The notes under the pieces are model-generated. The model saw only the letters and a list, made by a program, of their open reading frames with translations. It had not been told where the DNA came from and did not search any database. A stretch of 5,673 bases of DNA from a virus (taxonomy: Duplodnaviria > Heunggongvirae > Uroviricota > Caudoviricetes). Below, piece after piece: positions 1,284-1,683 of this stretch. Made by a program: the position numbers and the translations under genes. The stretch lies in the IMG/VR virus record IMGVR_UViG_2541047120_000010, one strand, 5' to 3'. Numbering within the stretch: the first letter of the stretch is position 1; each line of letters begins with the position of its first letter.

Positions 1284-1657
1284 AGAGGATAGATGGAGTT
1301 TAATGGCCATGAGTATCAAGCGGTCAAAAAGAAGTTCATCTATTCATTGAAAGCATAAGGCCATCTGAGTATATCCGTAATGATCTGGATATTGTCTATA
1401 ACATCAATGACCGGACGATAGATATCGGTGAGCAGCGTCCTGTATGGCAGGGTGAGGCAGGTGAAAAAACGTCCTGCCATCAACAAGAATCAAGTGCATC
1501 CGCTCTCTGGACAGATGGAAAATTTATTGGATGCAAAAAGATATGAAATAACACCTGTATAGCACGGAGCTTTCTCTGACCGATGCACTTGAAGTTGTTA
1601 GGGCTGACCCAGCCTGCTGTTTCTTTAGGTAAGAGAAAAGAGATTTAGGAGATGAAA

Positions 1658-1683
1658 GGTCGCAGAGGTGCGGCCTTTTTTAT
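1658..1683 (+). terminator. Intrinsic (Rho-independent) terminator, plus strand
   Basis: 7-bp stem with one G-U pair: ggtcgca(1658-1664), loop gagg, tgcggcc(1669-1675), followed by TTTTTTATT (1676-1684). The complementary strand lacks a U-tract, so it is unidirectional. Would end a cI read-through or 3'-UTR transcript. Confidence 0.6.

Follow-up and report, generated by a model that had tools for sequence, protein, structure and literature searches.

In lambda, rexA-rexB is co-transcribed with the repressor gene from PRM, and the transcript is ended by the t_imm terminator. Other temperate phages carry different genes in the same position. The PRM accessory genes rexA-rexB, hex and stk are lysogen-expressed and typically act in superinfection exclusion or in modulating lysogeny (PMC3564112); the same paper, citing Tyler et al. 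2004, reports that stk of phage 933W is co-transcribed with cI. In the 933W-like phage Min27, cI and stk flank a gene that encodes a DUF3024 protein, all three sharing one strand. From this gene order and the co-transcription of stk with cI in 933W, we infer that DUF3024 would belong to the PRM operon, in the slot that lambda fills with rexAB and 434 with hex.

The DNA analyzed here (the window, 5,673 nt in all) represents the immunity region found in Shiga-toxin phages of the Sakai type (Sp5/VT2-Sakai). Its layout is as follows.

298-513, minus strand: cro
588-1283, plus strand: cI repressor gene, the upstream gene of the operon (Pfam HTH_3 and Peptidase_S24)
1284-1683: the stretch under study, from cI to the terminator
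1293-1632, plus strand: full-length DUF3024 pseudogene (PF11225 / PADLOC PDC-S43 / phrog_3467), assigned by alignment and profile matches
1654-1681, plus strand: intrinsic terminator of the cI-DUF3024 unit, from its fold and from the same terminator behind the intact gene in loci L064 and L065
1785-2306: 173-aa ORF (ECs_1184; PHROG 2602, where no function is assigned)
Ending at 2629: 40-aa ORF (PHROG 21154) and a terminator
Between the 2629 terminator and N: OL/PL region
3034-3307: N, followed by the recombination genes

The stretch under study begins directly after the cI stop codon (TAA 1281-1283). The upstream gene is annotated as CI or as a LexA-family protein in AP005153, KP682372 and RefSeq, with a start that varies between 588 (AP005153, KP682372, NZ_AP018488) and 630 (Sakai). 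In the Sakai prophage Sp5, the region falls between cI (ECs_1185) and ECs_1184, at Sakai coordinates 1,256,653-1,257,053.

Identity of the stretch after cI

An earlier note, made from the letters of the window, had described 1284-1683 as non-coding and structure-rich, and had proposed a cI 3'-UTR element or a small RNA. As it stated, there is no ORF of at least 60 aa within 1284-1683 on either strand; the sole one that reaches into the interval is an 80-aa minus-strand ORF (1625-1867), which straddles the terminator. However, a sensitive DNA search returned, in addition to near-identical copies, a second class of matches at approximately 81% DNA identity (98 phage and 158 E. coli genome records), in which an undamaged gene of 342 nt, encoding 113 aa, takes up this stretch and aligns with it end to end. 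Because of this end-to-end alignment, the absence of an ORF is best read as secondary, following gene decay. Thus, the description as non-coding holds in that the stretch cannot code today, but not in the sense that it is intrinsically so.

Closer inspection of the reading frames is in accord with this relationship. The three frame pieces of the window, MEFNGHEYQAVKK, EVHLFIESIRPSEYIRNDLDIVYNINDRTIDIGEQRPVWQGEAGE and VLPSTRIKCIRSLDRWKIYWMQKDMK-stop-HLYSTELSLTDALEVVRADPACCFFR-stop, are collinear with the 113-aa protein, and the pseudogene runs from the native ATG at 1293 to the native stop codon TAA at 1630-1632. The repaired translation matches PF11225 with E = 1e-22 (80.9 bits, against a cutoff of 24.9); residues 6-112 are aligned, and they take in positions 4-111 of the 112-position profile. 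The repaired allele also matches PADLOC PDC-S43 with E = 4.9e-31 (4.4e-41 for the intact Min27 protein), and the intact homologue matches PHROG 3467. An uninterrupted frame for the ~113-aa protein is absent in the window, being broken by two 1-base deletions and a TAA codon; by its sequence, the window copy is filed as a pseudogene of the DUF3024 family, without the status of a working member. We conclude that 1284-1683 is very probably a decayed DUF3024 gene that keeps its ribosome-binding site and start codon, codon-derived sequence and terminator, and that likely extends the cI message by an untranslated tail. The earlier note had also mentioned a remnant of a deleted gene as a possible source of a 21-codon ORF at the start of the region. 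The word remnant was well chosen, but the gene decayed rather than being deleted, and what is left of it spans the whole region and not 21 codons.

The intact gene lies directly after cI in Min27, JLK-2012, Salmonella ST160 and many E. coli prophages, where it is annotated as "DUF3024 domain-containing protein" or, in ST160, as "regulatory protein Orf24". The position immediately following a cI-type (HTH plus S24) repressor is found in Min27, JLK-2012, ST160, RMDEC465, L064, L070, L077 and L093, and distant homologues (L072, L073) occur in contexts other than the post-cI slot. At two distant loci, the gene downstream of DUF3024 is a conserved ORF of 351 aa with the motif KGGVGKT (1729-2784 in L073, 3097-4152 in L077). 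By eye this ORF resembles a ParA/Walker-type ATPase, which hints at a two-gene arrangement in some lineages.

The parent family is sparsely described. Among 5.8 billion proteins searched with the repaired allele, the best full-length match was 81% identical, and an IMG/VR search for an intact version of the exact allele gave decayed copies and L093 only. NCBIfam gave no model for the parent DUF3024 gene, a PDB sequence search for DUF3024 returned only noise (E of at least 0.07), and a literature search found no paper mentioning "DUF3024". PDC-S43 appears in the literature solely as a predicted system in a survey of O157:H7.

The window allele itself is monomorphic in O157:H7. Positions 1284-1690 are 100% identical in all 40 phage records listed, among them VT2-Sakai, YYZ-2008, 1717, the PA series and the Stx1- and Stx2-converting phages of O157:H7 Morioka V526, and in the 22 full-length E. 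coli genome rows listed. In total, the class at 99% identity or above comprises 44 phage records and 234 complete E. coli genome records, and the E. coli genomes among those listed are all O157:H7 or O157 wherever the serotype is stated. Complete E. coli genomes fall into two identity classes only, one of at least 99% and one of 80-90%. Sequencing error was considered as a source of the lesions and rejected, because every listed full-length copy (40 phage records, 22 genome rows) is identical.

Existing annotations of this stretch in Sakai-type Stx phage and O157:H7 records either leave it blank or carry spurious hypothetical proteins; the proper label is DUF3024 pseudogene. RefSeq PGAP starts a 53-aa "hypothetical protein" (WP_434087148.1) at a CTG codon; it covers 1385-1546 and is the middle frame piece. 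KP682372, a PA-series phage, has a 44-aa ORF annotated at 1428-1562, and AP005153 has the antisense 80-aa ORF at 1625-1867 (minus strand, across the terminator) annotated as B57.

Lesions, constraint and mosaicism of the allele

The start signals and lesions of the broken gene are located as follows.

1284-1289, plus strand: Shine-Dalgarno sequence of the former DUF3024 gene (AGAGGA here; AGGAGG in intact alleles)
1293-1358, plus strand: 21-codon ORF, from frame translation and comparison with MAFNDLEYQAVKK in Min27
1326-1330, plus strand: lesion 1, a 1-base deletion in an A-run (alignment columns 69-76), shifting frame 0 to frame 2
1464-1469, plus strand: lesion 2, a 1-base deletion (A6 here; AAACAAA in intact alleles)
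1549-1551, plus strand: lesion 3, a nonsense change of TGG (Trp87) to TAA, from frame translation and alignment

The window sequence TAAAGAGGATAGATGG aligns with TAAGGAGGATAGATGG / TGAGGAGGATAGATGG, which precede the annotated start of the intact genes, and its Shine-Dalgarno sequence is weakened by a single G to A change. At lesion 1, the A-run has five residues in the window, six in the intact alleles of L064, L065 and RMDEC465, and seven in Min27. The metagenomic relative L093 has A7 at lesion 2, with one extra A at 1468 relative to the window; because of this A7, a C to A change followed by the loss of one A is suggested as the route to the second frameshift. Trp87, the site of lesion 3, is invariant in the 17 full-length homologues aligned. 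Given two frameshifts, a stop codon and the replacement of invariant residues, no DUF3024 protein can be made from this copy.

The divergence of the allele has the signature of a coding sequence. Differences between the window and Min27 are distributed 10/10/40 over codon positions 1/2/3, with a dN/dS of 0.086, and pairs of intact genes give 0.07-0.14 where dS is not saturated. This codon-position pattern, together with the intact-like dN/dS, argues that nearly all of the divergence arose while selection still acted on the protein product. Moreover, of 46 positions that are invariant in seven intact homologues (reaching down to 56% identity), 11 are changed in the window allele, Trp87 to stop included, as opposed to 0-1 in close intact relatives. 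This excess of replacements indicates relaxed constraint on the terminal branch leading to the window allele.

Related copies bear on the course of the decay. L093 carries the same allele (~99% identical) without lesion 2, behind a different cI, which suggests that lesion 2 was the last to arise. In L064 and L065 the gene is intact, with a 933W-type sequence over its 5' four-fifths, and the last ~40 nt of the gene, the terminator and the downstream 173-aa ORF are of the window type. Protein fragments P0019-P0022 represent further broken or mosaic versions, and frameshifted copies in IMG/VR (L066, L076) document an independent decay of the 933W-type allele. Taken together, these copies show that decay was stepwise and the module is mosaic. 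P0019 is a mosaic that begins as the 933W type and continues as the window-type allele, frameshift 2 included; P0014 has an in-frame 12-aa deletion in DUF3024. The neighboring cI allele has been exchanged at least once without loss of the relic (L093), and the persistence of the relic behind another cI could reflect either hitch-hiking or some residual use.

Phages of the 933W/Min27 type carry a relic of the 3' end of the window-type cI (CCAGTGGCCTGAAGAGACGTTTGGGTAA, encoding ...QWPEETFG and a stop codon), which lies approximately 25-50 nt past the stop codon of their own, different cI (2472-2500 of Min27, L003, corresponding to window 1256-1283). Since this relic follows a different cI, the DUF3024 module appears to have moved with a piece of another repressor gene, with the mosaic joint inside cI.

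Terminator, RNA structure and short reading frames

The intrinsic terminator proposed in the earlier note is real. Its 11-bp stem (1654-1664 / 1669-1679) has a GC-rich 7-bp core (1658-1664 / 1669-1675) and a GAGG loop, and U6 follows directly 3' of the hairpin at 1676-1681. The fold has a predicted stability of -17.5 kcal/mol and z = -4.5, with none of 200 shuffles as stable. It begins 22 nt past the native stop codon of the pseudogene, and in L064 and L065 the same terminator stands behind the intact DUF3024 gene. The consensus promoter/terminator scan missed it and instead reported a terminator-like element at 1601-1615, which was rejected: those positions are codons for ...RADPACCFF, and the C-terminal motif CCFFG is present in most intact homologues.

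The hairpin GGTCGCAGAG[G/A]TGCGGCC is kept in Min27 (L003 2876-2893, corresponding to window 1658-1675), where the U-tract is absent and TGATTC is found instead, and where the hairpin is followed on the same strand by a RuvC-like gene, stk and a small ORF. The same stem may thus be a terminator in one module and none in the other, and the Min27 version fits with read-through into the downstream genes. Several observations were made further along the window. A scan of 1684-1784, the interval that leads from the terminator to the ATG of the 173-aa ORF, yielded no consensus promoter, and a perfect palindrome, CAAGAC-TTGA-GTCTTG, lies at 1711-1726, upstream of that ORF; the ORF (1785-2306) has no Pfam, NCBIfam or PADLOC match. 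In the segment 2480-2640, a strong terminator at 2608-2629 with a T-run directly follows the 40-aa ORF, upstream of OL/PL. Rfam gave only sub-threshold sRNA-like matches near 2511-2640 (GadY at 20 bits, PrrF, Hrs1), and these are driven by the terminator.

In a lysogen, transcription from PRM would pass through cI and the relic and halt at the hairpin and U6 at 1654-1681, and the cI message would end in ~400 nt of relic that, aside from the stub ORF, is untranslated. The terminator would thereby shield the downstream gene, PL and N from PRM transcription. Three parts of the dead gene survive: the ribosome-binding site with the start codon (hence the stub ORF), codon-derived sequence and the native terminator. 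We consider it most likely that the region is the untranslated tail of the cI transcript. The suggestion of a cI 3' UTR is thus correct, if trivially, for a 3' tail that reaches to a genuine terminator and was made by gene decay; a regulatory element is not supported.

A rival reading is that the relic has been exapted as a functional RNA, either as a regulatory cI 3' UTR with alternative hairpins or as an Hfq-binding sRNA derived from the 3' UTR and ending at the terminator at 1654-1681. We judge this very unlikely. The motifs on which the earlier note had built a switch of mutually exclusive hairpins are where it placed them (CGTCCTG at 1436-1442 and 1470-1476, GGCAGG at 1446-1451 and 1456-1461, CCTGCC at 1473-1478, and a CGATA-ga-TATCG dyad at 1416-1427), and the region does end in a true terminator. 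Folding of the whole region gives z = -1.96, with 3 of 100 shuffles as good, which lends the idea marginal support, so that weak structure may be present, but "structure-rich" was not confirmed; the proposed switch segment (1410-1485, z = -0.8; 1430-1482, z = -1.5) is no more stable than shuffled sequence. Counted over 60 nt, inverted 6-mers are mildly enriched (12 versus 5.0 +/- 2.7, a count reached by 1.8% of shuffles), although the terminator stem is included in that count and may contribute. Direct 7-mer repeats within 60 nt number 2 versus 1.6 expected (42% of shuffles reach 2), and the longest stop-free run is 77 codons versus 70 +/- 17 in shuffles. Covariation, which had been proposed as a check, is absent for both structures when pairs are counted over 9 distinct homologous sequences. 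The MFE hairpins are paired in 75% of cells (72.8% in shuffles) and so are broken in 25%, and 146 of 500 shuffles equal or exceed their covariation score of 0.165; for the alternative helix, 77.8% of cells are paired (76.4% in shuffles), and 62 of 500 shuffles do as well in score. Indeed, CGTCCTG, GGCAGG and CCTGCC fall in codons for ...QRPVWQG... and ...VLPS..., and where the window has the GGCAGG arm at 1456-1461, intact alleles read TCCAGG or GCCTGG. Conserved codons, and no RNA device, best explain the short complementary segments as by-products, and the switch was rejected on the fold z-scores and pair counts. The case for a small RNA fares no better. An Rfam 15 scan, another of the proposed checks, came back empty for 1284-1683 with E values as high as 10 allowed, and a consensus scan of both strands found no promoter in the same interval. 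In the supplements to the Hfq CRAC study of EHEC Sakai (Tree et al. 2014), neither "1256" nor "1257" occurs as a coordinate string, so none of the 63 candidates of Table S2 lies at the Sp5 copy. The EHEC prophage sRNAs are placed in the late region (Tree 2014; Pas sRNA preprint), and the HnrS paper contains nothing on this locus. There remains the constancy of the relic, which is unchanged in hundreds of O157:H7 genomes and is also retained behind another cI in L093; however, identity among the O157:H7 copies reflects recent common descent and not selection. As a separate observation, ECs1180, an 83-aa ORF downstream of N (3366-3617), takes rank 22 in the list of Hfq-bound mRNAs that Tree et al. 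2014 give as Table S1, an unusually high place for a small gene of the early left operon in a repressed prophage.

Two further alternatives would give the region a protein product. The earlier note had raised a translationally coupled micro-protein, and its elements are indeed present: AGAGGA at 1284-1289 and an ATG at 1293 opening the 21-codon ORF to 1358. With the Shine-Dalgarno sequence and the ATG 3 nt apart just after the cI stop codon, the stub is probably translated. That this or another short ORF acts as a functional micro-protein coupled to cI is nevertheless something to which we give hardly any credence. Both start signals are those of the DUF3024 gene, the former weakened by one base, and the peptide consists of 13 residues of the DUF3024 N-terminus (MEFNGHEYQAVKK) followed by 8 codons of out-of-frame read-through past frameshift 1. 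Moreover, the stub peptide is not conserved, because the related decayed alleles P0020 and P0021 carry different stubs. Recoding would be the other route, with -1 ribosome shifts at both A-runs yielding low levels of DUF3024 protein. E. coli tRNA-Lys is known to slip readily on A-AAG; both lesions lie in A-runs and both need a -1 shift, and at lesion 1 a -1 slip after GUC AAA AAG would restore exactly ...AVKK EVH.... Yet site 1 is C AAA AAG, near-canonical, and not A AAA AAG, and site 2 is without a canonical in-frame heptamer. After both shifts the in-frame UAA at the invariant Trp87 remains, so that the product would miss the last strand and C-terminal helix of the predicted fold, and eleven invariant residues are replaced as well. 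Three independent low-probability events would multiply to a negligible yield. Recoding was rejected on the in-frame stop codon and the missing second slippery site, and we regard its chances as practically nil.

DUF3024 as a probable accessory gene of repressor operons

What the window holds is an ordinary, previously unflagged pseudogene, with its native terminator, of a known family without an assigned function. Its value lies in an annotation fix and in documenting, on a small scale, how Sakai-type Stx phages lost an accessory gene: a probable gene of the repressor operon, and a computational candidate for anti-phage defence, is intact in 933W-type phages and dead in those of the Sp5 type. 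If DUF3024 proves functional, this may be relevant to differences in superinfection exclusion among O157:H7 lineages. There is also a practical lesson, in that gene decay is the first thing to test for when a densely coding phage genome shows an ORF-free and seemingly hairpin-rich gap.

The EHEC prophage sRNAs (AsxR, AgvB, StxS, the EcOnc set and Pas) share with the region a lambdoid prophage setting, the same strains and intrinsic terminators. They differ in position: theirs is the late region, close to PR'/Q, stx or the lysis genes, whereas the window region follows cI and has no promoter of its own. Other comparisons are lambda rexA-rexB, 434 hex and 933W stk, which occupy the same slot, from cI to PL/N, closed by a terminator before PL. 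DUF3024 has no sequence relation to Rex, Hex or Stk, and, in contrast to them, it is a computational defence candidate only and is dead in the window.

DUF3024 is the first accessory gene after cI in many lambdoid and P22-like prophages, with a dead copy in the Sp5 type. The DUF3024 genes of 933W, Min27, JLK-2012, ST160 and E. coli and Salmonella prophages agree with the window copy in position, strand, length, start and stop, and share the Shine-Dalgarno sequence; the window copy differs from the intact genes in its two frameshifts, one nonsense codon and 11 invariant replacements. Downstream, the 933W-type phages continue from DUF3024 into the RuvC-like gene and stk, with the U-tract absent, whereas in the window the dead gene is closed by a full terminator and followed by the unrelated 173-aa ORF.
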